Source: Candidatus Latescibacterota bacterium (GTDB lineage: Bacteria; Latescibacterota; UBA2968; UBA8231). From it: a DNA stretch of 64,000 nucleotides. Made by a program: the position numbers and the translations under genes. Numbering within the stretch: the stretch's first letter is position 1; every line of letters begins with the position of its first letter. The DNA is taken from assembly GCA_964291625.2 (NCBI GenBank), contig OZ220089.1, forward strand, positions 4,192,001-4,256,000. The letters run 5' to 3'. The notes beneath the pieces are model-generated. The model had not been told where the DNA came from. It made no database searches and worked only from the letters and a program-made list of their open reading frames with translations. Shown piece by piece: positions 10,554-32,640 of this stretch.

Positions 10554-10884
10554 GGGAGCGGGGCGTTTTTCCTTGTTGCCCTACGAGGCCGTCAACTACA
10601 TTCAGCGGATTGAGGCTCGCGACGAGGCCTGGGATCCCAGGCTGTGCGGGCGTTCACGTGCGCCGGAGTTCGCTTCATGACTGTCCGCCGGGCCCCCTCG
10701 AGTCAGAGTACCCCCCACCAGGTGCGCACCGAGTGCCCGGGGCGTCCGCCCCCCGGAGGCGGACCAGGGCCCTGCTGCGCCGGATCACCCCCGCGGCGTC
10801 TGCCTGCACCCCGACGATCAGACCTGCACCCCGGCCTGGGGGCGTGCGGCCGAAGCCATTCACGATGTTCCCGCATCTCAACCC

Positions 10885-10923
10885 GATTCCCTGCGGTCCC
10901 AGAGAGCCTGGGGCCGGGGAATC
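10885..10923 (+). promoter_or_regulatory. 5' leader stem-loop just upstream of the RBS
   Basis: GATTCCC-TG-CGGTCCCAG / loop AGAGC / CTGGGGCCG-GGGAATC; GGAGG at 10931-10935. Confidence 0.55.
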
Positions 10924-10945
10924 AGCATTCGGAGGTTCTGCAGCA

Positions 10946-11878
10946 ATGAAGAGAGTCTCATTCGCCCTCTGCCTGACCGTGGGCCTCGCCGTTTCGGCCC
11001 GGGCTCACGTGCCGGAGGGCCAGGTTCTGCTCGCCTTCCAGTTCCCGGCGGGCGCGGAGCCCACCCTGGACGGGGATCTGTCCGAGTGGGCCGTGGTTCC
11101 CTCGGACTACTGGATCGGGCCGGAGCTCTACACGGCCCCGGACGGATCGCAGTGGACGGACCTGTCCGACATGAACAGCAAGGTCATCGTCGGTTACAGC
11201 GCCAGCACCGACCGTCTCTACATCCACCACGAGTACTTCGACGACTTCCGCAAGCGGGACTTCGCCAATCTCCCGCCGGTGGCGGGCCTGTTCGGTGACG
11301 AACAGAACCTGCCCGACACCTTCGAGATCCAGGTCGACGGGGACCACGGCGGCGAAGACTCCTGGTTCGACCCGGCGGAACAGCCGGAGAACGGCTCGCG
11401 CTGGGCCCAGAATACCCACTTCCGCATCCCGGATCTGGATCCTTCTGTGGAGAACGTGAACGATGAGAAGACGGCATGGGCCTGGTACTGGCAGAGCCAG
11501 GCTACCTGGACCGGCAACCTGCCGTGGGCGACCAGTGGGTATTCGTCGGATGTCGTCGAGCTCAACGCCCCCGACGTCAACGGCCAGGCGGAGTGGATGT
11601 TCACGGCGTGGGACAACCTGCAGTGGGATGACCCGGACGCCAGCGTGGTGCACGACATGGTAGAAGGCCAGATCATCGGCATGAACTGGCAGATCTCCGA
11701 CTACGACAACCTGGAGGACAACTCGAAGGAAGACTGGCTCCTGAACGGCCAGGCCACCATCTGGCAGACCTCGTCGGTAGCCACCGACTTCCTCCTGGCT
11801 CCGGTGGAGGATGTCGAGTTCGGCACCGCCGTCGAAGCCAGGAGCTGGGGCCGCGTCAAGGCTGCCTTCACCGAGTAG
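10946..11878 (+). CDS. Secreted acidic protein with a DOMON/CBM9-like region and C-terminal TAVEARSWGRVK motif
   Basis: Signal peptide MKRVSFALCLTVGLAVSARA; PTLDGDLSEW, DTFEIQVDGDHGG, GQIIGMNWQISDYD; GGAGG RBS. Confidence 0.75.
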   Translation: MKRVSFALCLTVGLAVSARAHVPEGQVLLAFQFPAGAEPTLDGDLSEWAVVPSDYWIGPELYTAPDGSQWTDLSDMNSKVIVGYSASTDRLYIHHEYFDDFRKRDFANLPPVAGLFGDEQNLPDTFEIQVDGDHGGEDSWFDPAEQPENGSRWAQNTHFRIPDLDPSVENVNDEKTAWAWYWQSQATWTGNLPWATSGYSSDVVELNAPDVNGQAEWMFTAWDNLQWDDPDASVVHDMVEGQIIGMNWQISDYDNLEDNSKEDWLLNGQATIWQTSSVATDFLLAPVEDVEFGTAVEARSWGRVKAAFTE

Positions 11879-11932
11879 AGCAGGCGGCGGCGGGCCGATC
11901 TCGCCGCCGGCGATCAGGCTCATGGCACGAAG

Positions 11933-11964
11933 GAAGGGGGGATGTGGCTTCACATCCCCCCTTC
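11933..11964 (+). terminator. Perfect 14-bp intergenic hairpin (partial terminator or mRNA stabiliser)
   Basis: GAAGGGGGGATGTG-GCTT-CACATCCCCCCTTC; no U-tract. Confidence 0.6.
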
Positions 11965-12024
11965 ACTGAATCAGCCCCACGGTGCAGGCCGGGTCTGTGC
12001 CGCACACGACAAGAGGGTGACATC

Positions 12025-13989
12025 TTGCCAGCAGGGCGATTGGCCAGCCTGCTCTTCTGCCAGTTGGCGGGCGCGGGGATGTGGGGCCCCGCGGAGGCGG
12101 TGACGATCTACCGGCTGGGCGGCGAGGACCACGCCAGCTTCCCCTTGCCTCCCGAGGTGGCGGACGGCCGCGCCGGGTTCGAGCAGTTGAGCTGGAGGGG
12201 CGTGGATCCCGCCCGGGCCGGCGTCTCCGACAACGTCAACCTGGATGGAGCCCTGGTCCCTTTCTACCACGGCAGCGACGAGAACATCCTGGCCGCGGCG
12301 GGAGAGCGTGGCGGCTTCCTGAGGACCGAGCGTTACACGGGCTATGGCCACGATCCGGACCTGGACGTGGTCGCCGATGGGGACTTCACCACCTTCGTCC
12401 TGAGGCATATTTCGTCGGTGGATTACAGTCCGGCTTCCGGCACCCACGGCTTGACCCTGTACTTCGATCTGGGCGGCCTGTTCCCGGTGAACCGGGTGCG
12501 CGTGTCGCCGCGCCCCGGCTCCACCCACTACATCGAGCACATCGCCATCGCCGCCGGCAGCGGCGAACCCCACGGGGGAACGCCGAACCGGTCCCACCTG
12601 GAATTCCACAGAAAGCTCGTCCGGGAAACGCCGTTTGACTTCGATCTGGTGGCGGAGATCACCCAGAACAAGAACCCGGTGGTGGAGATCCCCCTGGACC
12701 GGACGCCGGTGCGGCAGCTGGCGCTGTGGGTGGACCCGTTTCAGCGGGAGCCATGGGAGATTGCGGAGGTGGAGGTCTTCGCCGAGGGGTATGTGCCGTT
12801 CGCCGGCTATACCTCGAACACCATTCCCCTGGGCGCCCCCTCCAGCCTGGGGAGGGTGCGCTGGTCGGGCCGCCAGGACGAGTCGGCCCGGGTATCGATC
12901 CGCAGCCGCGGCGGCGACGATCCGGACCCGTCCCGGTACTGGCGGCGGACCTTCCGGTCCGACGAGGAGGTGCCGTACGGCGCGGACGGATCGACGCTGA
13001 CCCGGGACCAGTACGACAAGCTGGAGGGGAAGGAGAAGGGCCGCATCACCCACGACGCCGCAAACTGGGAGCTGTGGTCGGCGCCGTATCCCTTCGGCGA
13101 CAGTCTGGGGGTGGCGATGGTGGCGCCGAGGCCGCGCACCTACGTGCAGTTCTCGATCGACTTCGCCAGTGACTTCCTCGCCGGCGGGCAGGTCGATTAC
13201 CTGGAGTTCGCGGTATCGTCGCCGCCGGCGGCGACGGACCTGGTGGGGGAGGTCGATCCCTGGCGGGCCGAGGCCTCGGAGCCGACGGAGTTCACCTGCG
13301 CCGTGCGGCCGACCCTGTCGCTGCAGGACCGGGGATTCGACAGCCTGGAGCTGCGGTTCCAGGGCGGCCGGGTGGAGGAGGTGACCGGGGTCGAGGCGGC
13401 GGGAGCGGCCGTGGCCTTCACCGAGGTGGACAGCCTGCGCACCGACGACCGGGTGGTCGTGAGCTTCCCCCGGCTGGGAGTGAACGAGAGCGGCGAGCTG
13501 CTGCGGGTGAGGCTCCGGGGCGAGGCCTACCGCTACGCGGCGACCTTCCAGGTCCGGGTCTTCGACAGCGAGGCACCGGAGGAGGTCTGGCAACCGGTGA
13601 GGGCCGGCGACGCCACCGACGCCCTGGACGGCAACCGTCTGTCGGTGGAAGCCCTGGCCCTGGGGGCGTCGACGGTGGGGGGGCTGCAGGTCGAGCCGGC
13701 CGCCTTCACCCCCAACGGGGACGGGATCAACGACGAGGTGGCGATCCGCTACGACCTGCTGAAGCTGACCGAGGACCGGCGGGTGCGGGTGCGGGTGTGG
13801 GATCTGGCGGGCCGGCTGGTGCGGGACCTGTATGACGGGCGGGACCGTTCGGGGCGCTACGTCCAGCCCTGGGACGGCCGCGACGGCCGCGGCCGGCGGG
13901 TGCCGCCGGGACTCTATCTGTGCCGCGTCGCCGTCGACCGGGAAGGGGGCCGCGACGGCGAGACCCGCCTGATCGCGGTGGCGTACTGA
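12025..13989 (+). CDS. Secreted protein with a discoidin-like domain and C-terminal FlgD-Ig/CHU_C-like domain (paralog 1)
   Basis: TTG after AAGAGGG; YFDLGGLFPVNRV, FTPNGDGINDE, WDGRDGRGRRVPPGLY; ends IAVAY. Confidence 0.8.
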   Translation: MPAGRLASLLFCQLAGAGMWGPAEAVTIYRLGGEDHASFPLPPEVADGRAGFEQLSWRGVDPARAGVSDNVNLDGALVPFYHGSDENILAAAGERGGFLRTERYTGYGHDPDLDVVADGDFTTFVLRHISSVDYSPASGTHGLTLYFDLGGLFPVNRVRVSPRPGSTHYIEHIAIAAGSGEPHGGTPNRSHLEFHRKLVRETPFDFDLVAEITQNKNPVVEIPLDRTPVRQLALWVDPFQREPWEIAEVEVFAEGYVPFAGYTSNTIPLGAPSSLGRVRWSGRQDESARVSIRSRGGDDPDPSRYWRRTFRSDEEVPYGADGSTLTRDQYDKLEGKEKGRITHDAANWELWSAPYPFGDSLGVAMVAPRPRTYVQFSIDFASDFLAGGQVDYLEFAVSSPPAATDLVGEVDPWRAEASEPTEFTCAVRPTLSLQDRGFDSLELRFQGGRVEEVTGVEAAGAAVAFTEVDSLRTDDRVVVSFPRLGVNESGELLRVRLRGEAYRYAATFQVRVFDSEAPEEVWQPVRAGDATDALDGNRLSVEALALGASTVGGLQVEPAAFTPNGDGINDEVAIRYDLLKLTEDRRVRVRVWDLAGRLVRDLYDGRDRSGRYVQPWDGRDGRGRRVPPGLYLCRVAVDREGGRDGETRLIAVAY

Positions 13990-14000
13990 GGCGCGGCCAC

Positions 14001-16526
14001 ATGAACGGCAGGATCGGCGCGGCGCTGGTTGTCGGGGTCCTCTGGGGGAGTGCGGTCTGGGGCCAGGCGTACCTGCTCCGCGGCAACCAGATCGTGGTGG
14101 AGGGCCGCCACCTGAAGACCTGGGAGTACCCCGTGGGCACGATCGAGTTCCCGGCCCCGACGGCCGCCGCCCGGCCGCACTTCGTGGCCAAGGACATCGA
14201 CGCCACCCGCGACATCGTCGAGCACCTGCGGCGGCATCCGCCCCCGGGAGTCGAGGCCCAGGACCTCGACTTCCTGCACGCCGTGAGGGCCGGCACCAAT
14301 GCCGCCGGGGTAGCCAACCTCGTCGACGGGGATCCGGCCACGTACTGGCAGCCCGACCCGGACCAGCCGCTGCGCGACTGGTGGTTCGAGCTGGACCTGG
14401 GGCGGGTCGTCTCCGCGACCCGCATCCTCCTGACCTTCGTGGACGAGGATCTCGGGGATCCCTTTCTCCAGTATACCCTTCTGACCTCGGACGGCGAGCG
14501 TCCCGAGCAGGGCCTGCGGGACGTCAGGAGCTTCGTCGTCGCCTACGCGTCGCCGGGCGCCAACAAGAGCCGGCGCGTCTTCGAAATCGAGGTGAAACCT
14601 TCGGGAGACTCCCGGGATTCCGCGTGGCGGGGAGACGAGATCCGGTACGTGCAGCTCGTGGTGACGGAAAGCGACTCGGTCCGCGGCGCCGAGGTATCGG
14701 GCGCCGTCTACGACGCCCTGGAGCCGGCCCGCCGGGGGACGGTGGACTACTACAAGAAGGTGGCCGATGGGAGCATCCGGGTCGAGCGGGAGGTCTACGA
14801 GGCGATCGACCCCCGGTTGCGCGGCGAGGTCCGCTACTTCCGCCGCGAGCGTCCTCGTCTGGCCGGGATGGAAGTGCGGACGATCGGCGAGAACATCGCC
14901 CTGGGGTTGACGGCCCGCCGGGGGGTGGCGCTGAAGATCGAGACCGATACCACCGCGGTCACCGGCCTGGTGGACGGCCTGTATGAGACGACGGTCCTGA
15001 CCACGGTCCGCACCCCCGCCCTGCGCTTCTTCTACTTCGACCTCGGCGCCCACTACTGGGTGGATCGAGTGCAGATGTTCTTCCAGAACAAGGGCTTTCA
15101 GGGACCGATCACCGAGTACGAAGTCAGGACCTCGGACGGGAGCCGGACGCCCGACGGAAACCTGGCCTGGACCAGCCAGGCCCTCGGGGGCCGGGACGGC
15201 ATGGACTACCACGCCAAGGCCTTCGCGCCCACGGTCGCCCGCTACATCAGCATTCCCTACTCCGGCGGCATGGCGGGAGGCCAGGCGGACACGCGGGAGA
15301 TGCAGTTCTACGGTGAGGGATACCAGCCCCGGGTTTCGCTCACGTCCCCCCTGATCGCGCTGGACGGCGCCCGGACGCTGAGTTCGATCGAGTGGGAGGG
15401 CGAGACCCCTCCCGGGACCTCCATTGCCCTGCGCAGCCGGACCGGCAACCAGCTCGTCGATGTCCTCCGCTATCTCCAGCAGGACGGCAGCGAGATCACG
15501 GAGGAGCAGTACGACAAGCTGAACAAGTTCCAGAAGAAGGAAGTCGAGATCGTGACCGAGCAGGTGCCCGGGGGTGACTGGAGCGACTGGAGCGAGGAAT
15601 ACCGGGCCTCCGGGGCGCCCGTCACGTCGCCGAGCCCCCGGGAGTACCTCATGCTCCAGGCCTGGCTGACGACCGACCATCCGCACGAGGCCGCCTCCCT
15701 GCGGTCGATCCGGCTGAACTTCCTCGATCCCCTGGCCCGGCAGGCCCGGGGCGAGCTCGAGCCGGCCCTGGTGTCCGGGTTGGGCGCCGCCGACACCTTG
15801 TCCCTCTTCGTCAAGGCCGACTTCCTGCGCGACGGACCGGGAATGGACCAGATCCGCCTCTACGCTCCCGGCGTGGATCTGGACTTCCAGCTCCTCCGCA
15901 TGGGGCGGGAGTCCCAGTGGGAGGCCGGCCCGGCGGCCGAGCTGGGACCATCCGATCTGGAGCGGGTCCCGGCCGCCTCCGACTCGCTGTGGGTGCGCCT
16001 CGATTCGGCGGTGGGTCCCGAGGTCGACCTGATCGAAGTGCGGTTCACCGCGACCCTGTTCCGCCCCGGAGCCATCGTGCAGGCGGAACTGGGGAACTCC
16101 TCCGAGGCCGATCGATGGCAACGGGTGGACCCCGGCGACGCCACGGCCCTGGCCTCGAGTCAGGGGATGATGTTGCGGGGGTCCCTCGAAGCCGGGCGGG
16201 TGATTGGCCCGTTGAGGGTCAGCGCTCCGGTCCTGACCCCGAACGGGGACGGGATCAACGACGAGACCCGGTTCGAGTTCGCGGTGCTCCGCCTCGGCGG
16301 GCAGCGCGCGGTGAGGACCCGCCTCTACGATCTGGGCGGCGGCCTCGTGCGGGAGTGGGAGGAGCGGCGTCCCCTCGTGAGCGGGTCCTACGAGGTCCGC
16401 TGGTCCGGCGACGACCAGAGCGGCCGGCTGGTGCCTCCCGGGATCTATCTGCTGGAGATCGAGGTCGATGCGGACGCGGAGGTGTCGGGCCGCAAGGCGC
16501 ACCGCCTGGTCCATGTAGCGTATTGA
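14001..16526 (+). CDS. Secreted protein with two discoidin-like domains and C-terminal FlgD-Ig/CHU_C-like domain (paralog 2)
   Basis: Signal peptide; NLVDGDPATYW...ELDLGR, YFDLGAHYWVDRV, LTPNGDGINDE, WSGDDQSGRLVPPGIY; ends VHVAY. Confidence 0.8.
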   Translation: MNGRIGAALVVGVLWGSAVWGQAYLLRGNQIVVEGRHLKTWEYPVGTIEFPAPTAAARPHFVAKDIDATRDIVEHLRRHPPPGVEAQDLDFLHAVRAGTNAAGVANLVDGDPATYWQPDPDQPLRDWWFELDLGRVVSATRILLTFVDEDLGDPFLQYTLLTSDGERPEQGLRDVRSFVVAYASPGANKSRRVFEIEVKPSGDSRDSAWRGDEIRYVQLVVTESDSVRGAEVSGAVYDALEPARRGTVDYYKKVADGSIRVEREVYEAIDPRLRGEVRYFRRERPRLAGMEVRTIGENIALGLTARRGVALKIETDTTAVTGLVDGLYETTVLTTVRTPALRFFYFDLGAHYWVDRVQMFFQNKGFQGPITEYEVRTSDGSRTPDGNLAWTSQALGGRDGMDYHAKAFAPTVARYISIPYSGGMAGGQADTREMQFYGEGYQPRVSLTSPLIALDGARTLSSIEWEGETPPGTSIALRSRTGNQLVDVLRYLQQDGSEITEEQYDKLNKFQKKEVEIVTEQVPGGDWSDWSEEYRASGAPVTSPSPREYLMLQAWLTTDHPHEAASLRSIRLNFLDPLARQARGELEPALVSGLGAADTLSLFVKADFLRDGPGMDQIRLYAPGVDLDFQLLRMGRESQWEAGPAAELGPSDLERVPAASDSLWVRLDSAVGPEVDLIEVRFTATLFRPGAIVQAELGNSSEADRWQRVDPGDATALASSQGMMLRGSLEAGRVIGPLRVSAPVLTPNGDGINDETRFEFAVLRLGGQRAVRTRLYDLGGGLVREWEERRPLVSGSYEVRWSGDDQSGRLVPPGIYLLEIEVDADAEVSGRKAHRLVHVAY

Positions 16527-16540
16527 GCTGTCGAGCGGGA

Positions 16541-18715
16541 ATGCAGCGGATCAGCCTCGGCCTGGCCATGGCCGCCACACTGTGCCTGGTGGCCCGCGAT
16601 CTGGCTGCCGAGAGCCGGACCCTGGGCGGCGCCGGCGATCGACCCTGGAACGGCGGCGGCGGAGAGATCCCGGCCGCGGTGCAGACCAGCGTCGACGGGG
16701 CCGCGGTCACCAACACTCCGGGCGATGTGGTGGACTTCGACTTTCCCGGCCGACCGGGCTGGATCTTCCCCGAGAGGGCCGACTCCACGAGGAATATCGC
16801 CGCCGAGGCCGCCCTGACCTCGCCGAACATCCTGACCGAGGGCATCGCCGAGGAACTGCTCCTGATGGTGGACGGCGATCTCGAGACCGCTTTCACCCAG
16901 AAGGGCGAACCAGGGGGGCCGCAGGTCCTCGCCTTCGGGGCCATGTTCGACGTCGACCTGGGGGCGCGCTTCGGGGTGAACCGGGTCCAGTTCTTTCCGA
17001 GGAACGCTCCGGGATTCGAGGCCCCCGGCTTTCCTTTCCAGAACGATTATCTGCGCGCCTACGAGCTCCTCGTCAACGACGGCAGCGAGAACTCCAGGGA
17101 CGAGTCCGGCAGGCCGGTGCTGACCACCTTCAAGCTGGAGCTGCAGAACGACCGGCCCGTGGTCGACCTGCGGATTCCCCCCCAGTACCTGCGCTTCCTG
17201 CGGCTGAAGTCGCAGACGGTCGTCGGCTTCGAGATCGCCGAGTTTCGGGTATTCGGGGCGGGGTTCGTGCCAGAGGCCCGGTACATCTCCAGTGTATTCG
17301 ACCTGGGGACCCGCTGGGGGGTGTGGGGCAAGATCCGGTGGATCGAGGAGACCCTGGGTCCCGAAGGGCTGGCCCGGGCCCGCATCACGACCCGGGCGGG
17401 GCATGACGATACGCCCCTGGAGTTCACCCGCCCCGGTCCGGATTCGGAGGACATCCCCTGGCAGCGGGGAGCGGTGGCCACCACGGCCGAGGGGGAGGAG
17501 ATCGCCCTGGACGATCTCGAGCCCCTCGAAGCCCTGCGGGCCTACCGCGCCCTGCCCCTGGCGGAGAAGAACCGGGTGGCCCTGAGCCTGGAGGAGTATC
17601 TCGGCCTGAAGCCACGGGGCCGGATCCGCGACGATCCGGACGCCTGGACCCCGTGGTCGGCTCCGTATGGGCCGGAAGGCAGCCGCGGCATCACGACGGA
17701 GAATATCGATGACGAGCGCCTCGGGGCGGTCGTCACCACTCCGGGCCCACGGCGCTACTTCCAGGTCCGGGTGGAACTGTTGAGCCGGGACCTGGAGGCA
17801 GCCACCGGCATCGGGCAGCTGGCCTTCACGGTGCACCCCCCGGCGGCGGAGCGGATCGTCGGAGAGATCTACCCGCGCCAGGCCGGGCTGGCCGTGGCCG
17901 AGACGTTCACCTACGCGGCCATGCCCACCCGCATACGGCCGGGCCGGGACAGCGGCTTCGACACCTTCGAGATCGCCACGCCGGTCCGCGTCGAGGCGAT
18001 CGAGACGGTGCAGGTCCGCTTCCACGACGGCCGCACCGAGGCGGCGGATTTCTCGGGTCGGGATCTGGGCCCGTCGGCGTTGCCCACCGATCCGGCCGCC
18101 GACTTCGGCATCGAGCTGGTGGAGGAACGGCGGTTCCGGGTCCGCTTCCCGGCCATCACGAGGAGCGACCTCGAGGCCGGCGAGACCGCCGTCCTGACGA
18201 TCCGGTTCCGCTGCCGCGTCCTCCGCTACGGGACGACCTTTCCCGGGTGGGCCGGCCGCACCGGCAGCGGCAGCGCCGGCCAGAAGATCCTCGCCGGCAA
18301 CGCCGCCCACCTCGGTCCCGGGGACCCCGCCTTTCCTCCCCTGGGCACGGCGGACCCGCGGGTCCTGTCGGTGGACGTTCCCCTCGCGGGCGGCGGCGTC
18401 CTGATCAACGCCCGGGTGTGGCCGCGGCCCTTCAGCCCCAACGGCGACGGGGTCAACGACGGGACCCGCGTCTCCTACGACCTGTCCCGCGTCATCGGTC
18501 CCGTGGCCGTGGAGGTGAGGATCCTCGACGTGGCGGGGCGCGTCGTTCGCCGCCTCTTCACCGGCGAGCAGGAGGGCGGGCACTGGTCGATGCCCTGGGA
18601 TGGGACCGACGGCGGCGGTTCCCCGGTGCCGCCCGGGATCTACCTGGCCCACGTGGCGGTGAACAGCGCGGCCAGCGTCGAGACGGCGGCTGCCGTCGTC
18701 GAAGTGGCATACTGA
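16541..18715 (+). CDS. Secreted protein with a discoidin-like domain and C-terminal FlgD-Ig/CHU_C-like domain (paralog 3)
   Basis: Signal peptide MQRISLGLAMAATLCLVARDLAA; VDLGARFGVNRV, FSPNGDGVNDG, WDGTDGGGSPVPPGIY; ends VEVAY. Confidence 0.8.
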   Translation: MQRISLGLAMAATLCLVARDLAAESRTLGGAGDRPWNGGGGEIPAAVQTSVDGAAVTNTPGDVVDFDFPGRPGWIFPERADSTRNIAAEAALTSPNILTEGIAEELLLMVDGDLETAFTQKGEPGGPQVLAFGAMFDVDLGARFGVNRVQFFPRNAPGFEAPGFPFQNDYLRAYELLVNDGSENSRDESGRPVLTTFKLELQNDRPVVDLRIPPQYLRFLRLKSQTVVGFEIAEFRVFGAGFVPEARYISSVFDLGTRWGVWGKIRWIEETLGPEGLARARITTRAGHDDTPLEFTRPGPDSEDIPWQRGAVATTAEGEEIALDDLEPLEALRAYRALPLAEKNRVALSLEEYLGLKPRGRIRDDPDAWTPWSAPYGPEGSRGITTENIDDERLGAVVTTPGPRRYFQVRVELLSRDLEAATGIGQLAFTVHPPAAERIVGEIYPRQAGLAVAETFTYAAMPTRIRPGRDSGFDTFEIATPVRVEAIETVQVRFHDGRTEAADFSGRDLGPSALPTDPAADFGIELVEERRFRVRFPAITRSDLEAGETAVLTIRFRCRVLRYGTTFPGWAGRTGSGSAGQKILAGNAAHLGPGDPAFPPLGTADPRVLSVDVPLAGGGVLINARVWPRPFSPNGDGVNDGTRVSYDLSRVIGPVAVEVRILDVAGRVVRRLFTGEQEGGHWSMPWDGTDGGGSPVPPGIYLAHVAVNSAASVETAAAVVEVAY

Positions 18716-18728
18716 GAGGAGGTCGACG

Positions 18729-24405: not shown

Positions 24406-26081
24406 TGGGACCAGCCGGAGCGGTGCTGATCCTGGCCGCGGGGGCGGTCCTGGCCGGTTGCGGGGAAGACCCCCGCGGGCCGGTGCTGGCCGAGGTGGGG
24501 GACTCCCGCATCCACGCGTCCGACCTGCGCCGCTACGAAGAGCGCCTGGCCGAGAGCCTGAGGTCCCGGGAGGCGGGCATCGAAGGCCGGCGGCAGCATC
24601 TGCAGGCCCTGATCGACAAGGAGATCCTCATTCGGGAGGCGGCGGCGCGGGGATGGGACCGGGACCGCGACATGCGCCGCAGGCTGGAGCGCGAATGGAC
24701 CCGGCGGCTGGTGCAGGAGTTCCTGGCCCGGGAGGTGGATGCCAGGATCACCCTCGAGGAGCAGGAGGTCCGGGACCAGTACCTCAAGAGCGGACGAGAC
24801 CGCGCGGTCCGGTGCGGCCGGATCGATGTCGGGACCAGGGAAGAGGCCGAGGAGATCGTGCGCCTCCTCGAGGGCGGCGCCGACTTCGGGGAGTTGGCGA
24901 GGCAGCGCTCGACCCACCGTCCGACGGCGGCGCAGGGGGGCCTCTACACCGGCTACGTCACCCGGGACCAGATCCCCCTGGCCATCATGCGGGAGCAGGT
25001 CTATCCCCTCGAGAAGGGGGAGATCTCCGAGCCGCTGCCCCTCCCGGGCGGCTCCTACGGCGTGTTCCAGGTCGTGGAGGAGGTGACGGTTCCCCTCGAA
25101 CGGGTGCGGCGCCTGGTGGAAGCCGAACTCCACCGGGAGAAGGCCCGCGTCCGGTCCATGGAGCTGGGCCGGGAACTGCGGGATGCCCTGGACGCGCGTC
25201 CCCGGGAAGACGGTTTCGAGCTTCTCGCCGCGCGTCTGGAGAGCGGGGCCAGCTCGCTCTCCGAGGCGGAGCGCGGCGCGGTCCTCTACGAGTTCGACGG
25301 CGGCGCCGTCACCGTGGGGGAGCTCGTCGACTCGGCCCGCGAGAACTACCGGCGGTTTTCCGGCGACGCGCGGGAGCAGGTGCGGTGGTTCGCGGAGTCC
25401 GTCCTGGTTCCTCGGGCGCTGATCGTGCAGGCCGCCCGCAATGCCGGCATCGACCGCGAGCCGGGGATGGCCGCCTGGCGCCGGGCCAGGGAGCACGAGC
25501 GCCTGCTGACGGTCATCCGGAGAGAGGTGACCGACGACGTCTCCGTGGCCGAGGCCGAGGCCCGGCGCTTCCATCGCGAGAATCCGCGGCTCTTCGTCCC
25601 CCAGGAGGATCTGACGCTGGACGAGATCCTGGTGGCGACACGGGAAGAGGCGGTTGCGGTCCGCCGCCGGATCGAGGCCGGTGAGGACCTGCGGCTCCTG
25701 GCCCTGGAGCACACCCTGCGGCACCAGGCCATTCCGGACAGCGGGAGATTCCACCTCCATGAGTACGAGAGAGAGGCCCACGAGGCCCTCTTCGAAGCCG
25801 CTCGGGGAGCCGCGCCGGGCGACCTGGTGGGTCCCGTCGAAGTGGAACTGCCGGCGTCAGGAGACCGCTTCCATTCGGTGTTCCGGGTCGTCGAGTCGAC
25901 CCTCGGCGCCGGCCCCCGGCCCTTCGCCGAGGTCGAGACCCGCGCCCGGGCGATGGTCCTGCGCCGCAAGCGCGATGCGGCCTTCTACCGGTTTCTGGGG
26001 GAGTTGCGGAAACGGTACGAGTCCCAGGTCAGGATCCACGAAGAGAGCCTGAAAGCGCTGGTACGACAGGAGGGCAGCTGA
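24402..26081 (+). CDS. Parvulin-type peptidyl-prolyl isomerase/chaperone lipoprotein (SurA/PrsA-like, two rotamase domains)
   Basis: LAGC lipobox; LQALIDKEILIREA, GADFGELARQRS, GEISEP, EILVATREEA, GDLVGPVE. Confidence 0.85.
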   Translation: MMGPAGAVLILAAGAVLAGCGEDPRGPVLAEVGDSRIHASDLRRYEERLAESLRSREAGIEGRRQHLQALIDKEILIREAAARGWDRDRDMRRRLEREWTRRLVQEFLAREVDARITLEEQEVRDQYLKSGRDRAVRCGRIDVGTREEAEEIVRLLEGGADFGELARQRSTHRPTAAQGGLYTGYVTRDQIPLAIMREQVYPLEKGEISEPLPLPGGSYGVFQVVEEVTVPLERVRRLVEAELHREKARVRSMELGRELRDALDARPREDGFELLAARLESGASSLSEAERGAVLYEFDGGAVTVGELVDSARENYRRFSGDAREQVRWFAESVLVPRALIVQAARNAGIDREPGMAAWRRAREHERLLTVIRREVTDDVSVAEAEARRFHRENPRLFVPQEDLTLDEILVATREEAVAVRRRIEAGEDLRLLALEHTLRHQAIPDSGRFHLHEYEREAHEALFEAARGAAPGDLVGPVEVELPASGDRFHSVFRVVESTLGAGPRPFAEVETRARAMVLRRKRDAAFYRFLGELRKRYESQVRIHEESLKALVRQEGS

Positions 26082-26104
26082 AGCGCCGTGCGGCCCGGGG
26101 GCTG

Positions 26105-29100
26105 ATGCGGCGGCTGGTCGTCTGGCTGACGCTGCCGGTGCTGTGCGCCGCCGCCCGGGCGGACGCGGACGGCATCCGCGCCACCGTGGAGTTCATGGCC
26201 TCCGTCGGCTCCCGGGTCAGTGGCTACCCGGGCAGCGACCTGGCCGCCGACTACGTGGCCGACGCCTTCGCCGCCGCCGGCGTCCGCGAGGTCGCCGTCG
26301 AGGAGTACCCGATCACCGTGCCCCTCGACCGCGGCGGCGAGCTCACCCTCACCGCCTCGGGCGAGCGCTTCCGCCTCCACGGCCTGTGGCCCAACCACGT
26401 GCGGACCCCCACGGTGCCGGATTCCGGGCTCTCCGGTCACCTGATCTACGGCGGGGAAGGGCGCCTGTCCGAGTACGCGGGCCTCGAGCTCGCCGGCAGC
26501 ATCGTCCTCCTCGAGTTCAACACGGGCAACCGCTGGCTGGAGGCCGCCTCCCTCGGGGCCCGCGCCATCCTGTTCATCGAGCCGCAGGCCACCTCCGGGC
26601 GCGAGGCGGGGGCCAAGTTCGTCTCCGTCCCCCTCGACATACCGAGGCTCTGGATCGACGCCGCCGCCGGCGCCCGCCTGAGGGACCTGGCGGAGGACGG
26701 ACCCCTCGAGGCGCGCCTGGGGAGCCGCATGGACTGGGTCTCGCGGAAGGGCCGCAACATCTGGGGCGTGGTCCCCGGTCACCACCCCGAGCTCGGGGGG
26801 GAGACGATCGTCGTCCAAGCCTACTACGACGGCATCTCCATCGTCCCGGCCCTGGCGCCCTCGGCCGAGACCGCCGGCGGCGTCGCCGCCCTGCTGGAGC
26901 TGGCCCGGCATCTCCAACGCCGCCCGCCGGCGCGGACCGTCGTCCTGGTGGCGACCGGGGCCCACTTCCTCGCCCGGCGGGGGATCGTCGACTTCCTCGA
27001 CCGCCATGCCCGCACCCACGAGGAGTACGCCGGGCTCATGGAGAAGCCCCTCGATCCGGCCCTCTTCATCGGCCTGGACCTGACCAGCGGCAGCGATCGC
27101 ATCGGCATCTGGAACAACACCGACCGCTACGACATCAAGCGGTTCTACGTCCCCTTCGGCCGCGCCTTCACCGCCTACGCCGAGGCGGCGGCGCCCCTCC
27201 TGGGGCGCAGGGCGGAGCGCGCCCTGGTCAACGGCATCAGTCCCCTCAAGGGCCTCGACTGGTCGACCTACGTGCCCGGGGGGGTCACCGTGGACGGCCA
27301 GGTGGCCATGGCCGCGGGGCTCGTGGCCCTCTCCTTCGTCACCATCGGCGACGGCCGCTTCGTCGTCGACACGCCCCTGGACCGGCCGCAGCGGGTCGAC
27401 TTCGACAACCTGTCCCGGCAGAGCGCCTTCCTCAACCAGATCCTGAGCCGGGCCTTCGACGATCCCCGGCTGCTGGCCGACCTGGAGGACTTCGGCCCGG
27501 TCCTGAAGGACGAGCTGCGCACCTTCCGCGTCGACGTGCGCGCCTTCCCGCGCCGCAGCCAGGTGCCCGACCGGATCGTCGAGGGGGCCATCGTCGCCCT
27601 GGGCGCGGGCGCCGCGCGGCGGGCCGGGCCGGGCTTCAAGCCCCACAAGGGAGTGCGCGCCTTCCGCTTCCACCTGGCCGACGGCAACGGCAGCGCCGTG
27701 ATCCCCGGGCTGCCCCTCGGGGCCGTGCCGGTGAGCGCCTACGTCCTCGACCCCGAGACCGGCGATGTCGTCTACGCCCCCGACAGCGGCGAGCGCGCCG
27801 GCAGGCACCACGGCAAGAAGCTGGCCCAGGCGATCCGCTTCGCCGGCGAGCACAAGACCCTCGTCGTCTTCCCCTGCGCGTCCCGGCCCTTCTACGGCCT
27901 CGTCGACCCCCGATCCCTCACGGCCGTCCGGCAGATCCGGGTCGTGAACCACACGGGCGTGGCGCCCAAGGAATACGGCGTGGCCAGGGGCGAAGGCGTC
28001 CGGGAGCCGGTGGCGGTGGCCTTCGCCGCGGCCGACGACAGCCTCATGTACCTCATGTCGGACAGCATGATTCTCACCAACAGCCGCACCGACCCGCGCG
28101 GCACCGGGTACGTGGTCGGCCGGGACCCTCTCGAGCGCACCGACTACCTGGCGGTGCAGGACATGTGGCGGATCAACGACGAGCGCCTGGCGGCGATGCG
28201 CGACCACGCCATCGAGAATCCGCGGCTGGCGGCGCTGCACGCCTGGGGACGCGAGCTGATCGACCAGGCCGGGGCCGCGGCCGAGAGGCGGGACTGGGAC
28301 GCCTTCATGTCCAGGGTGCGGGCCGCCCGGGGCGTCACCTCGCGGGCCTACCCGGACGTGATGGCCACTCTGAACGACGTCATCAAGGGGCTCGTGTTCT
28401 TCCTCGCCCTGGTGCTGCCGGCCGCCTTCTTCGGCGAGCGTCTGGTCTTCGCCGCCGCCGACATCCGCTGGCAGCTGTCCGGCTTCGCCCTGATCATGGC
28501 GATCGTCTGGGCGGCCATCTCCCAGGTCCATCCGGCCTTCGACATCGCCCATCCGGCGATCATCCTCCTCGCCTTCGCCATCATGGCCATGGCCGTCTTC
28601 GTCTTCGCCATGATCTTCTCGCGCTTCAACCACTACGTGGAGGAGTTCCATGCCCGCGCCTCCCAGGTGCACCGGGCCGACATCAACCGCGTCAGCGCCT
28701 CCTACGCCGCCTTCATGCTCGGCATCTCCAACATGCGGCGCCGCAAGCTGCGCACGACTCTGACCCTGGTGACGTTGACCCTGCTCACCTTCACCGTCCT
28801 CTCCTTCACCTCCTTCCGGCAGCAGCTCGCCTTCCTCGCCTTCCCCACCGCCCACGAGGCCCGTCACGAGGGGGTCCTGATCCGCCACCCCGGCTGGAAG
28901 GAGCTGTCGTCTCCGACCCTCGACTACGTGCGCTCCCACTTCTCCCGCCATGGCGTCGTGAGCCCGCGCAACTGGCTGGTGGCCGACGCGGGCAAGCCGA
29001 AGAGCTACATCGAGGTCCAGGGGAAGGCGGGCACGGTGCGCGCCGCCGGCCTGCTGGGACTGTCGCCGCAGGAGCCCCGGGTCACCGGCATCGACGAGGC

Positions 29101-30499
29101 CCTGGCGGCGGGCCGTTTCTTCGAGAGGGACGACGAGAGCACGTGCCTCCTTCCCGGGAGAATGGCCGCGGCCCTCGGCATCGGCGCGGCGGACGTGGGC
29201 CGGGCCGCCGTTCGCGTCTTCGGCCGGGACCTCGTGGTCCGCGGCATCGTCGACGCCGGCCGGCTGGACGCCATCCGCGATCTCGACGCCGAACCGCTCA
29301 CGCCGGCCGACTTCCAGAGCGGCGAGGTGCAGTTGCCCGGAGGCCGGGAGAGGGTCTCCATGGAGATCGAGGAAGAAGCGGGTCCGGACCGGATCGAGCC
29401 CTTCCTCCACATGGCGGCCGACAACGTCCTGATCCTGCCCTACGGCGCCGTGTGGGTGGCCGGCGGCACCCTGCGCTCCGTCGGCGTCCGCTTCGACGAC
29501 GGCGTCGACGGCCGTCCCCTGCTGGAGGGCTTCCTGACGCGCGTGGCCGCAACCCTCTTCGCCAGCCTCCGCGACCCCGGGACGGGCGAGCTCGAGGTCT
29601 CCTCCTACACCTCCGTGGGCCTGACGGCGGTGGAAGGACTCGCGGCGCTGTTCGTGCCCATCGTCATCGCCGCCCTCATCGTCCTCAACACCATGCTGGG
29701 CGCCGTGTACGAGCGTCTCCGGGAGATCGGCGTCTACTCCTCCGTGGGGCTGGCGCCGATGCACATCGCCCTGCTCTTCGTGGCCGAGGCCTGTGTCTAC
29801 GCCGTCCTCGGCGTCACCCTCGGCTACCTCCTGGGCCAGGGGTCGGCCAGGCTGCTGCTGACCCTCGACCTCGTGCACGCCATGGACCTGAACTACTCCT
29901 CCACGGCGGCGGTCTCGGCGGCCCTCATGGTCATGGTCCTGGTGCTGCTGTCCACCCTCTACCCGGCGCGAGTCGCCGCCGCCAGGGCGGTGCCGGACAC
30001 GGTGCGGCGCTGGGTGCCGCCCGACCCGGAGGGCGACCGCTGGGAGTTCGACTTCCCCTTTGCCGTGGGGACGGGCGAGGTCCGGGGACTGAGCGGGTTC
30101 CTGGCCGGCTGGTTCGGGTCCTGCAACGAGGACTCCGTCGGCGACTTCTACGCCGAGAAGGTGCGCCTCGTCACCGGCGGGGAGGCCGGGGCCCCCGCGT
30201 ACTCCCTGCAGATGCTGACCTGGCTGGCCCCCTTCGACAAGGGGGTGAGCCAGTACCTGCAGCTCGACTTCGCGCCCTCCCCGGTGGCCACCATCTACCA
30301 GGTGGAGGTCTTCATCGAGCGGATCAGCGGCGAGACGACGTCGTGGCGGCGGCTCAACCAGGGCTTCATGAACAGCCTGCGGAAGCAGTTCCTGCTGTGG
30401 CACACCTTCACGGAGGAGGCCAGGGCCCACCACCGGCAGGCCGCCGAAGGGATGCTGGCGGAGAGCGCTGCCCAGGCCGGCGGGGCCGACCTCGCATGA
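26105..30499 (+). CDS. M28 peptidase-like/PA-domain protein fused to multi-pass membrane and FtsX-like permease domains
   Basis: SRVSGYPGS, PA-like GHLIYGGEG...GSIVLL, NIWGVVPG, AYYD, ALLELAR; FtsX-like NMRRRKLRT and VYERLREIGVYSSVGL. Confidence 0.85.
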   Translation: MRRLVVWLTLPVLCAAARADADGIRATVEFMASVGSRVSGYPGSDLAADYVADAFAAAGVREVAVEEYPITVPLDRGGELTLTASGERFRLHGLWPNHVRTPTVPDSGLSGHLIYGGEGRLSEYAGLELAGSIVLLEFNTGNRWLEAASLGARAILFIEPQATSGREAGAKFVSVPLDIPRLWIDAAAGARLRDLAEDGPLEARLGSRMDWVSRKGRNIWGVVPGHHPELGGETIVVQAYYDGISIVPALAPSAETAGGVAALLELARHLQRRPPARTVVLVATGAHFLARRGIVDFLDRHARTHEEYAGLMEKPLDPALFIGLDLTSGSDRIGIWNNTDRYDIKRFYVPFGRAFTAYAEAAAPLLGRRAERALVNGISPLKGLDWSTYVPGGVTVDGQVAMAAGLVALSFVTIGDGRFVVDTPLDRPQRVDFDNLSRQSAFLNQILSRAFDDPRLLADLEDFGPVLKDELRTFRVDVRAFPRRSQVPDRIVEGAIVALGAGAARRAGPGFKPHKGVRAFRFHLADGNGSAVIPGLPLGAVPVSAYVLDPETGDVVYAPDSGERAGRHHGKKLAQAIRFAGEHKTLVVFPCASRPFYGLVDPRSLTAVRQIRVVNHTGVAPKEYGVARGEGVREPVAVAFAAADDSLMYLMSDSMILTNSRTDPRGTGYVVGRDPLERTDYLAVQDMWRINDERLAAMRDHAIENPRLAALHAWGRELIDQAGAAAERRDWDAFMSRVRAARGVTSRAYPDVMATLNDVIKGLVFFLALVLPAAFFGERLVFAAADIRWQLSGFALIMAIVWAAISQVHPAFDIAHPAIILLAFAIMAMAVFVFAMIFSRFNHYVEEFHARASQVHRADINRVSASYAAFMLGISNMRRRKLRTTLTLVTLTLLTFTVLSFTSFRQQLAFLAFPTAHEARHEGVLIRHPGWKELSSPTLDYVRSHFSRHGVVSPRNWLVADAGKPKSYIEVQGKAGTVRAAGLLGLSPQEPRVTGIDEALAAGRFFERDDESTCLLPGRMAAALGIGAADVGRAAVRVFGRDLVVRGIVDAGRLDAIRDLDAEPLTPADFQSGEVQLPGGRERVSMEIEEEAGPDRIEPFLHMAADNVLILPYGAVWVAGGTLRSVGVRFDDGVDGRPLLEGFLTRVAATLFASLRDPGTGELEVSSYTSVGLTAVEGLAALFVPIVIAALIVLNTMLGAVYERLREIGVYSSVGLAPMHIALLFVAEACVYAVLGVTLGYLLGQGSARLLLTLDLVHAMDLNYSSTAAVSAALMVMVLVLLSTLYPARVAAARAVPDTVRRWVPPDPEGDRWEFDFPFAVGTGEVRGLSGFLAGWFGSCNEDSVGDFYAEKVRLVTGGEAGAPAYSLQMLTWLAPFDKGVSQYLQLDFAPSPVATIYQVEVFIERISGETTSWRRLNQGFMNSLRKQFLLWHTFTEEARAHHRQAAEGMLAESAAQAGGADLA

Positions 30500-32640
30500 G
30501 CAAGGCCGTCCCCCGGATCTACCGCCGGCACCTGAGCTCGCGCTCCGAGCCCCTCCTCGAGTCGCGCCACCGCCTGACGTGGCGGGGGTTCTTCGTGGGC
30601 AGCTTCCTGAGCTTCTTCCTGGCCATCGGCGCCCCCTACAGCAACATGGTCATCAAGGGCGCCTACGTGTCCGCCGACATCAGCACCCCGGGGGCGATCT
30701 TCGTCTTCGTCGTGCTCATCGGCCTCCTCAACCTCGCCTTCAAGGCAGCGGCCCGCAGCAAGGGGTCGGCCCTCGCCTTCGCCGCCGCCCTGGGGGCCGC
30801 CTGGCTCTCCGCCTACCGGCCCCTGGGCGATGTCGATGTGCATTCGCCCGGATTCATCTTCTCCACCTTCGCCCTGACCTGCGCCCTCGCCAACGTGCCG
30901 CTGGCCTGGTCCGGCCGCAGCCTGGCCCTCAACCGGGCCGAGCTGATCATGGTCTATGCCATGCTGGCCATGGTCTCGGCCGTGTGCACCATGGGCCTGA
31001 CCGAGATCCTCCTGCCCACCCTCACCGCCGTCTTCTACTACGCCTCGCCGGAGAACCAGTGGCGGGAGAAGCTCTTCCCCCACTTCCCCGAGCACGACAT
31101 CCTCGTGGACGACGGCGCCGGCAACGCCCTGTTCTTCGAGGGCATCTCCAGCTCCGGCGAGGGCATCCCCTACGGCGCCTGGGTCGAGCCGCTCACGTGG
31201 TGGGCGGTCTTCCTGCTGGCCCTCTACGTGTGCATGATCTCGATCGCCGTGATCCTGCGGCGCCAGTGGATGGAGCGGGAGCGGCTGAGCTATCCGGTCG
31301 CCCAGGCCGGTCTGGCCATGATCCGCGGCGAGGACGAGAAAGGCCTGGTGAACGGCTTCTTCAAGCGTCCCTCCGTGTGGATGGGCATGGCCATCCCCTT
31401 CATCGCCGGCAGCCTCCGGGCGATGTCGAACTACGACCCCTCCGTACCCATGGTGTGGATGCGCCTGCCCATACCCTACGCCTCCGGCAAGGTCGACTTC
31501 GCCCTCACCGGCTTCGCCTACCTCATCGACACGAGGATATCGGGGAGCCTGTGGGTGTTCTACCTGCTCGGCAGGATGCAGAAGAGCCTGCTGGCCACCG
31601 CCGGGATCAAGTCGGAGCAGGTCCTCGAGGGCGTCCACGACGCCCCCCTGGTCGGCTACGAGGGGCTGGGGGCCCTGCTGGTGCTGGTGGCGGTGGTGCT
31701 GTGGACGGCCCGCGACCACCTGAAGGCGGTCTGGCTCAAGGCCCTGGGCCGGGCGCCCCTCGTCGACGACCGGGACGAGATCCTCTCCTACCGCGGCGCC
31801 GTGATCGGCGCCCTCGGGGGGATCGCGGTCATGACCGGGTGGCTGTGGATCATGGGCACACCCCTGTGGGTCTCGTTCTTCTTCATCGTCCTGGCCATGG
31901 CGATCTTCATCGGCATCACCCGGATCATCGCCGAGGCCGGGCTGGCGACCCTGCGGACGCCCGTCAACGCCCCCGACTTCGTCATCCTGGGTCTCGGGTC
32001 CTCTCTCGTCGGCCCCACGGGCGTGTTCAACCTGTCCATGGCCTACATCTGGGCCAACCAGGGGGTGCGCTGCTTCGCCATGGCGACCTGCACGAACGCC
32101 CTCAAGCTGATCGAGGACATGGACGCCCGCAGCCGGCGGCTGGTATTCCTGGCCCTCATCCTGGCCCTCGTGATCGGGACGCTGGGCTCGTTCTGGATGA
32201 TCTTCCACGTCGCCTACCGCTACGGAGGGGTCAACCTCGATATCTGGTTCTTCAACCTGGGACCGGCCAAGGCCTACGACCACGCCGTGCGCAACCTGGA
32301 GCCCGCCGGCGTCTACTGGCCGGGCATGGGCTTCCTCTTCGGCGGCGGCGGCATCATGGCCCTGCTCTACCTGGCCCGCCAGCGCCTGCCGTGGTGGCCC
32401 CTGCACCCGATCGGCTTCCCCATCGCCGCCGTGAACCTGATGTACTACACGATCACCAGCGTCTTCGTCGCCTGGCTCATCAAGGTCATCGTTCTGCGTT
32501 ACGGAGGCGTCAACCTCTACCGCCGCACCCAGGGGGTGTTCCTGGGCATGATCGCCGGCCAGATGCTGACCATGGGTCTCTGGCTCATCGTCGACTACTT
32601 CACGGGGAAAACCAACAACTGGTTGTTCGGCTGGGTGTGA
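30496..32640 (+). CDS. DUF6785/DUF6784-type polytopic membrane protein, putative transporter (copy 1)
   Basis: ATGA overlap with upstream gene; ILRRQWMERERLSYP, RIIAEAG, WWPLHPIGF; many hydrophobic segments; 714 aa. Confidence 0.8.
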   Translation: MSKAVPRIYRRHLSSRSEPLLESRHRLTWRGFFVGSFLSFFLAIGAPYSNMVIKGAYVSADISTPGAIFVFVVLIGLLNLAFKAAARSKGSALAFAAALGAAWLSAYRPLGDVDVHSPGFIFSTFALTCALANVPLAWSGRSLALNRAELIMVYAMLAMVSAVCTMGLTEILLPTLTAVFYYASPENQWREKLFPHFPEHDILVDDGAGNALFFEGISSSGEGIPYGAWVEPLTWWAVFLLALYVCMISIAVILRRQWMERERLSYPVAQAGLAMIRGEDEKGLVNGFFKRPSVWMGMAIPFIAGSLRAMSNYDPSVPMVWMRLPIPYASGKVDFALTGFAYLIDTRISGSLWVFYLLGRMQKSLLATAGIKSEQVLEGVHDAPLVGYEGLGALLVLVAVVLWTARDHLKAVWLKALGRAPLVDDRDEILSYRGAVIGALGGIAVMTGWLWIMGTPLWVSFFFIVLAMAIFIGITRIIAEAGLATLRTPVNAPDFVILGLGSSLVGPTGVFNLSMAYIWANQGVRCFAMATCTNALKLIEDMDARSRRLVFLALILALVIGTLGSFWMIFHVAYRYGGVNLDIWFFNLGPAKAYDHAVRNLEPAGVYWPGMGFLFGGGGIMALLYLARQRLPWWPLHPIGFPIAAVNLMYYTITSVFVAWLIKVIVLRYGGVNLYRRTQGVFLGMIAGQMLTMGLWLIVDYFTGKTNNWLFGWV

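Follow-up and report, generated by a model that had tools for sequence, protein, structure and literature searches.

The stretch of DNA described here, a window of 64,000 nucleotides from the genome of a Candidatus Latescibacterota bacterium, contains a compact run of nine + strand genes that fill positions 10946–32640. The genome measures 5.9 Mb in two contigs and is 95% complete. Because the G+C content of the window is ~70%, genes were called from the G+C content of third codon positions and frame analysis, together with lists of open reading frames (ORFs). An initial annotation had read the nine products as parts of a single envelope-spanning complex. We find that the run consists of two separately conserved modules: module A, comprising the first seven genes (g1–g7), and module B, to which g8, g9 and two genes farther downstream belong.

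Module A begins with S1 (g1, 10946–11878), a secreted, CBM9/DOMON-like protein of 310 amino acids (aa) with a C-terminal SWGRVK tag. Its start at 10946, as first annotated, agrees with the translation, which begins with a signal peptide as do those of the g1 paralogues. Three FLG proteins follow, each with a C-terminal domain (CTD) that ends in VAY and is here called VAY-type: FLG-a (g2, 12025–13989, start possibly 11944), a secreted protein of 654 aa whose CTD is of the CHU_C/FlgD_ig kind; FLG-b (g3, 14001–16526), with 841 aa and an F5/8 type C (discoidin) domain; and FLG-c (g4, 16523–18715), with 730 aa. Next are BAR-1 (g5, 18729–21527), a predicted outer-membrane β-barrel of 932 aa from an unnamed family, and its paralogue BAR-2 (g6, 21524–24405), which is 40% identical to it. 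The last gene of module A, PPI (g7, 24402–26081), encodes a parvulin lipoprotein of 559 aa that is SurA/PrsA-like. In module B, M28X (g8, 26105–30499) is a putative inner-membrane protein of 1464 aa that combines a signal peptide and a pseudo-M28/PA ectodomain with an FtsX domain at its C terminus, and g9 (30496–32640) is a polytopic carrier of 714 aa with DUF6785 and DUF6784 and a predicted OPT/Yellow-Stripe fold. The tight packing noted at the outset is real, with intergenic distances from 13989 on of 11, −4, 13, −4, −4, 23 and −4 nt, and scans against Pfam and NCBIfam agree both with the earlier list of domains and with the earlier statement that no TonB-dependent receptor, ExbBD, secretin, ATPase or type IX secretion system (T9SS) core family is encoded among the nine genes. 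By itself, the operon-like packing misled the single-machine reading.

The division into two modules is apparent within the genome. In a paralogue survey (tblastn of the stretch's proteins against the genome, then gene calls by third-position G+C and clustering over 17 regions), 25 barrel genes were found in 12 loci. Loci of type I hold S1, three FLG genes, one or two barrels and a parvulin gene. Type II loci, of which there are four (C1:1773–32000, C1:353681–377000, C1:4433000–4458000 and C2:42000–63000), contain a FlgD_ig protein with a classic tail, one FLG protein (VAY), three barrels that are more divergent (~26% identical to g5), a TPR/YfiO-like protein of 1082 aa, DUF5683, DUF4159 and an ExbB-ExbD-ExbD series. 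M28X occurs in five copies, and a barrel gene lies within 5 kb of just one of them, that in the studied run.

Comparison with other genomes separates the modules further. We took 40 kb (35.7 kb at a contig end) around the closest g5 orthologue (82–96% identity) in nine genomes. The series TPR gene, S1, three FLG genes, two barrels and PPI is kept in all nine. M28X and DUF6785 come next, as in the studied run, in three of them (G160, G166 and G104), and in the other six (G167, which belongs to the same genus, and five from genus g13) DUF6785 directly follows PPI and M28X is absent. It follows that M28X, here together with the block up to the downstream gene M901, is an indel beside DUF6785 and lies outside the conserved unit. 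A wider synteny analysis drew on 79 related loci with up to 10 kb of flank, used all own-genome paralogues as queries and counted the 60 loci with full flanks. FLG genes are present in all 60 (at least three in 57), at least two barrels in 57, S1 in 55 and PPI in 53. The whole module A core is found in 48 of these loci, with its genes in 21 different orders; DUF6785 occurs in 24 of the loci and M28X in one. That the module A genes are kept together while their order is shuffled is a strong sign that they work together.

The distribution across the phylum points the same way. Among 168 genomes of the phylum, a barrel profile is present in 106, namely in 75 of 75 in the organism's own family (f1), in none of 56 in three sister families (f2–f4) and, with weak matches, in 12 of 13 in family f10. 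DUF6785 is present in 154 and M28X in 155; each occurs in all 56 genomes of f2–f4 and in none of the 13 in f10. M28X and DUF6785 thus vary together across these genomes, independently of the barrel. A lack of synteny among the nine families would, according to the initial annotation, refute its reading: g1–g7 stay syntenic, and M28X and DUF6785 follow another profile. The single nine-protein complex does not withstand the absence of M28X from six of nine orthologous and 59 of 60 full-flank loci, nor the presence of M28X and DUF6785 in all 56 genomes of the barrel-less sister families.

Neither g5 nor g6 matched any family of Pfam or NCBIfam, relatives form 947 clusters at 50% identity among 1.84 billion representatives, and every source name seen for these relatives was "hypothetical". 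As deposited, g6 shifts frame near 23882–23926. Relative to its closest orthologue, one base is missing at a run of G; nine of nine orthologues are intact (948–969 aa), and contigs of the public runs X1 (depth 21.7/21.7) and X2 (3.6/3.6) show an additional G behind 23882, the X1 contig having no other difference over 1.2 kb. We conclude that the frameshift arose from an assembly error in a homopolymer; with the missing G restored, g6 is complete. The barrels have an N-terminal hydrophobic segment. An AlphaFold2 model of g5 from an alignment of 50 rows (pLDDT 66.5) has long confident strands at residues 210–530 and 630–930; the highly conserved residues 21–210 and an Asp-rich insert at ~530–630 are poorly modelled (pLDDT <50). 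All 26 Foldseek matches at E ≤ 1e-3 are outer-membrane barrels (LptD, SlpA, SprA, porins, MtrB, ushers and SusC) with low TM scores, and the top 50 rows of a VIA-align search are membrane barrels without exception, at Z 9–14, with none standing out. The modelled structure shows an outer-membrane β-barrel fold, as the initial annotation had predicted for both proteins. In fold class g5 resembles its top Foldseek matches LptD, Deinococcus SlpA and SprA; it differs from them in that TM values are just 0.14–0.23, sequence similarity is absent, and its N-terminal 180 residues and Asp-rich insert are unmatched.

The parvulin g7 scores 44.3 bits against Rotamase (PF00639, cut-off 21.7) and 44.8 bits, in two stretches, against Rotamase_2 (PF13145), and a lipobox, LAGC, is seen in its translation. 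Seven parvulin paralogues are encoded in the genome, six of them within 5 kb of a barrel gene.

Within module A, the barrels are linked to the VAY-type domain. There are 29 FLG proteins in the genome, in three subfamilies, a, b and c, and best matches in other loci indicate that every type I locus has one member of each. Over their last 110 residues, 28 of these proteins align as P..FTPNGDGIND...V.V.I.DL.GRLVRRL...WDGRD..G..VPPG.YL.R..VD.D...V.VAY, and a profile, A2, was built from this alignment. Its scores are bimodal genome-wide: 29 full-length matches lie at 105–141 bits, with g2 at the top (141 bits), and no other exceeds 53 bits. About 120 ordinary T9SS tails in the genome match A2 only partially. 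None of the 29 matches is farther than 17 kb from a barrel gene; 28 fall within 10 kb and 22 within 5 kb, and neighbourhoods of this kind make up 8.3% of the genome. A motif search gave a similar picture. A FlgD_ig-like motif occurs within the last 90 residues of 91 ORFs. Of these, 24 terminate in [VILA][AVSTG]Y, and all 24 Y-ended tails are in barrel loci, as are three of the other 67, which are of the LLR/LLK type; all three are in type II loci. Across the phylum, A2 (E ≤ 1e-25) was found in 97 of the 168 genomes, comprising 75 of 75 in f1 and none of 56 in f2–f4. Cross-tabulation of the barrel and A2 genome lists gives 157 concordant genomes (96 with both and 61 with neither), ten with a barrel and no A2 domain (G008 and nine of f10, all weak barrel matches) and one with the domain only. 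The VAY-type domain and the barrels are exclusively linked.

The initial annotation had described the surface proteins as lectin-like, which is supported by the F5_F8_type_C domain of g3 (41.3 bits), found in its paralogues as well, and by CBM9-type matches of S1 paralogues. S1 has ten members in the genome, all in barrel loci, and weak CBM9_1 matches were obtained for six of the nine others, one of them above the cut-off. FlgD_ig was matched by g2 (25.8 bits) and g4 (42.3 bits). CHU_C is reached at 27 bits or more by 12 of the 26 FLG paralogues scanned, in matches spanning profile positions 3–86, which is almost the whole profile. We take the TPNGDGIND segment of the VAY-type domain to resemble the type-B signature, on the strength of the Pfam CHU_C matches.

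A T9SS is present in the genome. Elsewhere than in the run we find SprA (TIGR04189; 274, 203 and 124 bits in one frame, cut-off 200), two PorU proteins (572 and 537 bits, cut-off 420) and a PorV-like protein (114 bits, below cut-off) whose gene adjoins one of the PorU genes. The initial annotation regarded a mapping onto a known system as evidence against its reading, and part of the run maps in this way: a type-B-like T9SS domain is found on the VAY proteins, and the genes for SprA, for both PorU proteins and for the PorV-like one lie elsewhere in the genome.

The closest parallel is that of type-B CTD cargo and PorP/SprF in the T9SS of Bacteroidota. Two papers (PMC9143113, PMC12618676) document binding and genetic linkage of such cargo with PorP/SprF in P. 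gingivalis and F. johnsoniae. As in those systems, cargo with a CHU_C-type CTD here adjoins its own outer-membrane barrel gene, many such pairs occur per genome, SprA, PorU and PorV-like proteins are present, and a private CTD subtype is found exclusively near the barrels. There are also clear differences. PorP/SprF are 14-stranded FadL-type barrels of ~300 aa, whereas the barrels here have ~930–970 aa; three cargo paralogues accompany one or two barrels, along with a parvulin and a CBM9-like protein; the CTD has VAY at its end; and the phylum is Latescibacterota, in which any binding of cargo by the barrels is a prediction.

The explanation that we favour, with a probability of about one half, is that the run holds two systems side by side: VAY proteins delivered by the T9SS would be held by their cognate giant barrels for glycan capture, and a separate inner-membrane module B would lie next to them. 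We infer the dependence on the T9SS, the anchoring by barrels, by analogy with type-B cargo and PorP/SprF, and the capture or uptake of glycans. In this scheme, Sec would export the FLG proteins and the T9SS encoded elsewhere would take them across the outer membrane, where g5 and g6 would hold them on the surface as PorP/SprF hold type-B cargo. The parvulin lipoprotein might chaperone barrel or cargo in the periplasm. The resulting surface complex could capture glycans and possibly pass them inward, in neighbourhoods that resemble polysaccharide utilization loci (PULs). The discoidin domain of FLG-b, the CBM9-like S1, the carbohydrate-related genes in the flanks of the barrel loci and the enrichment of DUF6785 near these loci, the last two detailed below, speak for such a role in glycan capture. 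Module B, found across the phylum, would consist of secondary carriers with the OPT fold and of a giant protein that joins an FtsX domain to a dead M28/PA ectodomain.

Several points weigh against this explanation. The placement of the proteins and the binding of VAY tails to barrels are themselves deduced. The three FLG proteins in the window score below curated cut-offs, for CHU_C at 25.9, 17.6 and 20.1 bits for g2, g3 and g4 (cut-off 27) and for TIGR04131 at 18.4 bits (cut-off 35). No specific barrel family could be assigned to g5 with Foldseek (TM 0.12–0.24) or VIA-align (Z 9–14 for many unrelated barrels), so that a pore is no more than a possible function of the barrel. GldM (TIGR03517) gave no match in the genome, in a search whose control was likewise silent, and PorP/SprF (PF11751) gave none either, with control genomes equally silent; the barrels of the studied run have no PF11751 match at E ≤ 5. 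Genomes within a family are kin, so that the counts over the 168 genomes overstate independence. Many housekeeping genes stand in the same flanks as the carbohydrate-related ones described below. Finally, a barrel lies within 15 kb of ten of the 27 DUF6785 genes in the genome; because of this proportion, and because DUF6785 thrives in barrel-less families, any coupling of uptake to DUF6785 is loose at best. A complex prediction for g5 (residues 30–932) with the CTD of FLG-c scored 0.00 in both runs, with controls not run, and weighs neither way.

A more far-reaching reading, which we offer tentatively and consider unlikely, is that module A is a counterpart of SusCD. The barrels would dock three T9SS-delivered, lectin-like partners through the VAY-type CTD and conduct glycan; ExbB/ExbD would energise them in type II loci; DUF6785 carriers would receive the glycan; and the SWGxIK tag, on the CBM9-like subunit and ~50 other secreted proteins, would be a further surface-sorting signal. 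Like SusCD loci, the barrel loci are multi-copy and combine surface carbohydrate-binding modules and a barrel with nearby carbohydrate-active enzymes and inner-membrane carriers. Their flanks contain a sulfatase, an FGE-sulfatase, GH42, three PcRGLX-like proteins, CBM9, BNR and a β-helix protein, and also a rhamnose mutarotase, DUF4838 and GH32-like and GlcNAc-2-epimerase-like proteins. Six of the 12 barrel loci have a DUF6785 gene no more than 10 kb away (1.5 expected, P ~0.001), and eight have one at up to 15 kb (1.9 expected; none of 5000 shuffles reaches 8). The ExbB-ExbD-ExbD series of type II loci suggests an energy coupling to the outer membrane that would operate without a Plug-type receptor. 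Unlike SusCD loci, none of the 12 contains a Plug-domain, TonB-dependent barrel, although the genome has 24 Plug-domain matches; SusD (PF07980) has no match in this 95%-complete genome, in a search that found it in the Bacteroides thetaiotaomicron control; and the surface proteins have T9SS-type tails in place of lipoprotein signals.

The SWGxIK tail can also be considered in its own right. Genome-wide, [ST]WGx[IVL]K is found in 53 contexts within ORFs of at least 150 aa, and in 52 of them it lies no more than ten residues from the stop codon; in g1 the tag, SWGRVK, is encoded at 11845–11862. Most of the tagged proteins have a signal peptide and a length of 160–460 aa, and ten of them are members of the S1 family. 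Pfam scans of 20 that are encoded outside barrel loci gave three with Cache, two with LRR and one with PD40, two marginal matches below cut-off, and 12 with no family. In sequence, the tail looks like an undescribed C-terminal sorting tag that lacks a transmembrane helix, and is a candidate for a new one.

Another possibility, which we regard as unlikely, is that module A is a surface coat or an adhesin array by which a sponge symbiont attaches to host or particles, with paralogous sets serving variation and no uptake of nutrients. The S-layer barrels of Deinococcus (SlpA) take Foldseek ranks 2–4; genes with discoidin, FG-GAP/ASPIC, LRR and TPR are found repeatedly within the loci and next to them; contigs nearly identical to ours are found in three public runs labelled sponge metagenome; and the type-B cargo of Flavobacterium is described as adhesins in PMC9143113 and PMC12618676. 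The related loci and proteins come from metagenome-assembled genomes (MAGs) of Candidatus Latescibacterota, some labelled Gemmatimonadetes or Gemmatimonadota, but the titles of some Latescibacterota MAGs that have the family point to sources other than sponges, such as Baikal-deep. Carbohydrate-active genes and OPT-fold carriers are, moreover, enriched near the loci, and the four type II loci join barrels to ExbB-ExbD-ExbD, which fits energised transport.

The barrels might instead be autonomous pores for secretion or assembly of the VAY proteins, two-partner- or usher-like and independent of the T9SS, with the V-x-V-A-Y strand as a targeting element that acts like a β-signal or by strand complementation. 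The exclusive co-occurrence of VAY domain and barrels would agree with this, as would an aromatic residue at the end of the tail after alternating hydrophobics, a dedicated periplasmic parvulin chaperone, and FhaC, TamA and BamA among the top VIA-align rows. These rows, however, share their level with porins and with many further barrels; POTRA and usher domains were not seen. The VAY domain matches the T9SS profile CHU_C over its full length in a genome that has a T9SS. Furthermore, 42 of 52 SWGxIK-tagged proteins are encoded away from barrel loci, which means that the barrels do not deal with that tag in general. We hold an autonomous pore to be distinctly improbable.

The reading of the initial annotation, in which the nine products form one complex that spans the envelope and imports substrate without TonB, is largely refuted by synteny and phyletic profiles and very improbable. 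In its favour, all nine genes point the same way and are spaced by no more than 23 nt or overlap by 4 nt, keep the same order in three of nine orthologous loci and have DUF6785 behind module A in all nine, with DUF6785 enriched near barrel loci, and, as weak support, contigs of an RNA-library run bridge g2/g3, g4/g5, g6/g7 and g8/g9 (DNA carry-over possible, one contig with 22 differences). Against it, M28X is lacking in six of the orthologous loci and present in one of the 60 full-flank loci, M28X and DUF6785 occur in 56 of 56 barrel-less genomes and are absent from f10, which has weak barrel relatives, and for 17 of the 27 DUF6785 genes any barrel lies beyond 15 kb. Contigs of the RNA-library runs cover 30 of 30 bins over 10900–30899 in run X3 and 19 of 30 in X14, but these runs are filed as metatranscriptomic with DNA carry-over possible, and their contigs cannot prove transcription or one single transcript.

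Under the preferred explanation, of two systems side by side, module B must be considered separately. The initial annotation described g8 as a pseudo-M28 peptidase fused to FtsX, and its sequence matches in the PDB and an altered zinc-ligand motif agree. The FtsX domain scores 43.7 bits; M28 is matched weakly (18.1 bits, cut-off 21.3) and over profile positions 1–65 only. Matches in the PDB are to the aminopeptidase 2ek8 (residues 17–276), to Nicalin (weak, E 0.02) and to MacB, YtrF and LolC. Against 2ek8, SHHDS is changed to AYYDG and NDDASG to AETAGG, and the first zinc-ligand His is replaced; the M28/PA ectodomain is therefore predicted to be catalytically dead. Nicalin, to which the ectodomain aligns weakly besides the PA/M28 aminopeptidase, is likewise a pseudo-M28 protein, of eukaryotes. 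The FtsX domain of g8 aligns to those of MacB and LolC, but unlike MacB/LolCE the protein has a single FtsX domain in 1464 aa, has no adjacent ABC ATPase and has OPT-like partners. With no MacB_PCD match in g8 and no ABC ATPase among the nine genes, it does not classify as a MacB-type transporter. Some 6 kb downstream of the nine genes, at 38546–39226, an ABC ATPase is encoded alongside a MacB-type permease of its own.

The initial annotation had also placed DUF6785 near the OPT carriers, and here the structural model bears it out. Pfam assigns g9 to DUF6785 (360 bits) and DUF6784 (91 bits). Its AlphaFold2 model (pLDDT 86.2, pTM 0.88) finds barley HvYS1 first with Foldseek (7wsr/7wst, E 2e-7, probability 1.0, TM 0.52–0.61), on which it superposes over ~738 columns; the next matches have E ≥ 9.5e-3 and TM ~0.1. 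The predicted structure thus shows the OPT/Yellow-Stripe fold. In contrast to OPT proteins, g9 has no match to Pfam OPT (PF03169) even at E ≤ 5, identity is 11–12%, and 27 copies in this genome attest to an expansion of the family. In one Atlas cluster, 11% of members have Pfam OPT.

The third component, M901 (42107–44812, +), is a polytopic protein of 901 aa and the usual partner of M28X. It has no Pfam match, and its Atlas cluster is automatically named "Peptide transporter family protein" (score 0.90). Two possible relationships were rejected: BLASTP shows no similarity between M901 and g8, and an hhalign comparison with DUF6785 was not significant. M901, like M28X, has five copies, and is within 5 kb of M28X at four of the five M28X copies; the exception is the studied run, where it lies 11.6 kb away, with g9 and a block of ~9.5 kb between. 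DUF6785 is within 5 kb of M28X at three of the five copies. The other sites of module B are at C1:265362, C1:964380, C2:547077 and C2:984275. From these associations, M28X, M901 and DUF6785 appear to constitute an inner-membrane module of their own that is found across the phylum.

M901 is followed by a second gene with DUF6785 and DUF6784 (44824–46968, +), also of module B and 80% identical to g9. The block between the two DUF6785 genes encodes a creatininase, two FG-GAP/ASPIC proteins, a TPR protein, DUF4920, the MacB-type permease, the ABC ATPase and M901. It is shared with G160 and G166; six other genomes have a single DUF6785 gene there. In G167 the order is PPI, DUF6785 and elongation factor P, and the best match of that DUF6785 is the copy at 44824–46968. 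This copy is therefore probably the counterpart of the single DUF6785 that follows the parvulin gene in genomes that lack the M28X block.

These results have several implications. Latescibacterota are widespread, uncultured members of the Fibrobacterota–Chlorobiota–Bacteroidota (FCB) group that are credited with polymer degradation; to our knowledge, it is not known how they take substrates across the outer membrane. With 25 barrels and 29 partners here, and both present in all 75 other sampled genomes of the family, the seven-gene module A ranks with the gene sets that have expanded most in one family of the phylum. If anchoring by the barrels is true, module A would be a new variant of the logic of type-B cargo and PorP, set in PUL-like neighbourhoods. 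A bioinformatic rule separates its private CTD subtype from the ~120 ordinary T9SS tails, and this subtype offers a natural test, outside Bacteroidota, of how the specificity of a CTD for a barrel is coded. DUF6785/DUF6784 gain a predicted fold and hence a likely class of activity, that of an OPT-type secondary carrier. The initial annotation knew of no described system of this composition, and we concur: no Pfam or NCBIfam family covers the barrels, and searches of the full-text literature found no paper on these families in Latescibacterota and none on DUF6785. In a paper on sponge Latescibacterota (PMC12993501), a text search for "secretion system", "outer membrane" and "TonB" gave no hits.

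Some further features of the window deserve mention. A promoter scan returned 0 promoter-like sites, and a terminator scan returned eight terminator-like sites against 5.0 ± 2.5 expected, none convincing between genes. One of them, at 10548–10563, lies just after the gene at 9015–10553 for a TPR protein of 512 aa. This gene stands directly upstream of g1, is kept in nine of nine orthologous loci, and may be either the upstream edge of the operon or an eighth member of module A. Genes for FG-GAP and UnbV_ASPIC (CRTAC1-like) proteins are located at 4286–5941, 33457–35160 (− strand) and 39195–41906; the family has 12 members in the gene-called regions, and such proteins are repeatedly encoded next to barrel loci (27 of the 79 related loci), in many cases adjoined by TPR genes. 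Farther downstream, an ORF for an HNH endonuclease (49277–49825, 182 aa) is located between the glycine-cleavage H gene and scpA, in a stretch that is otherwise housekeeping.

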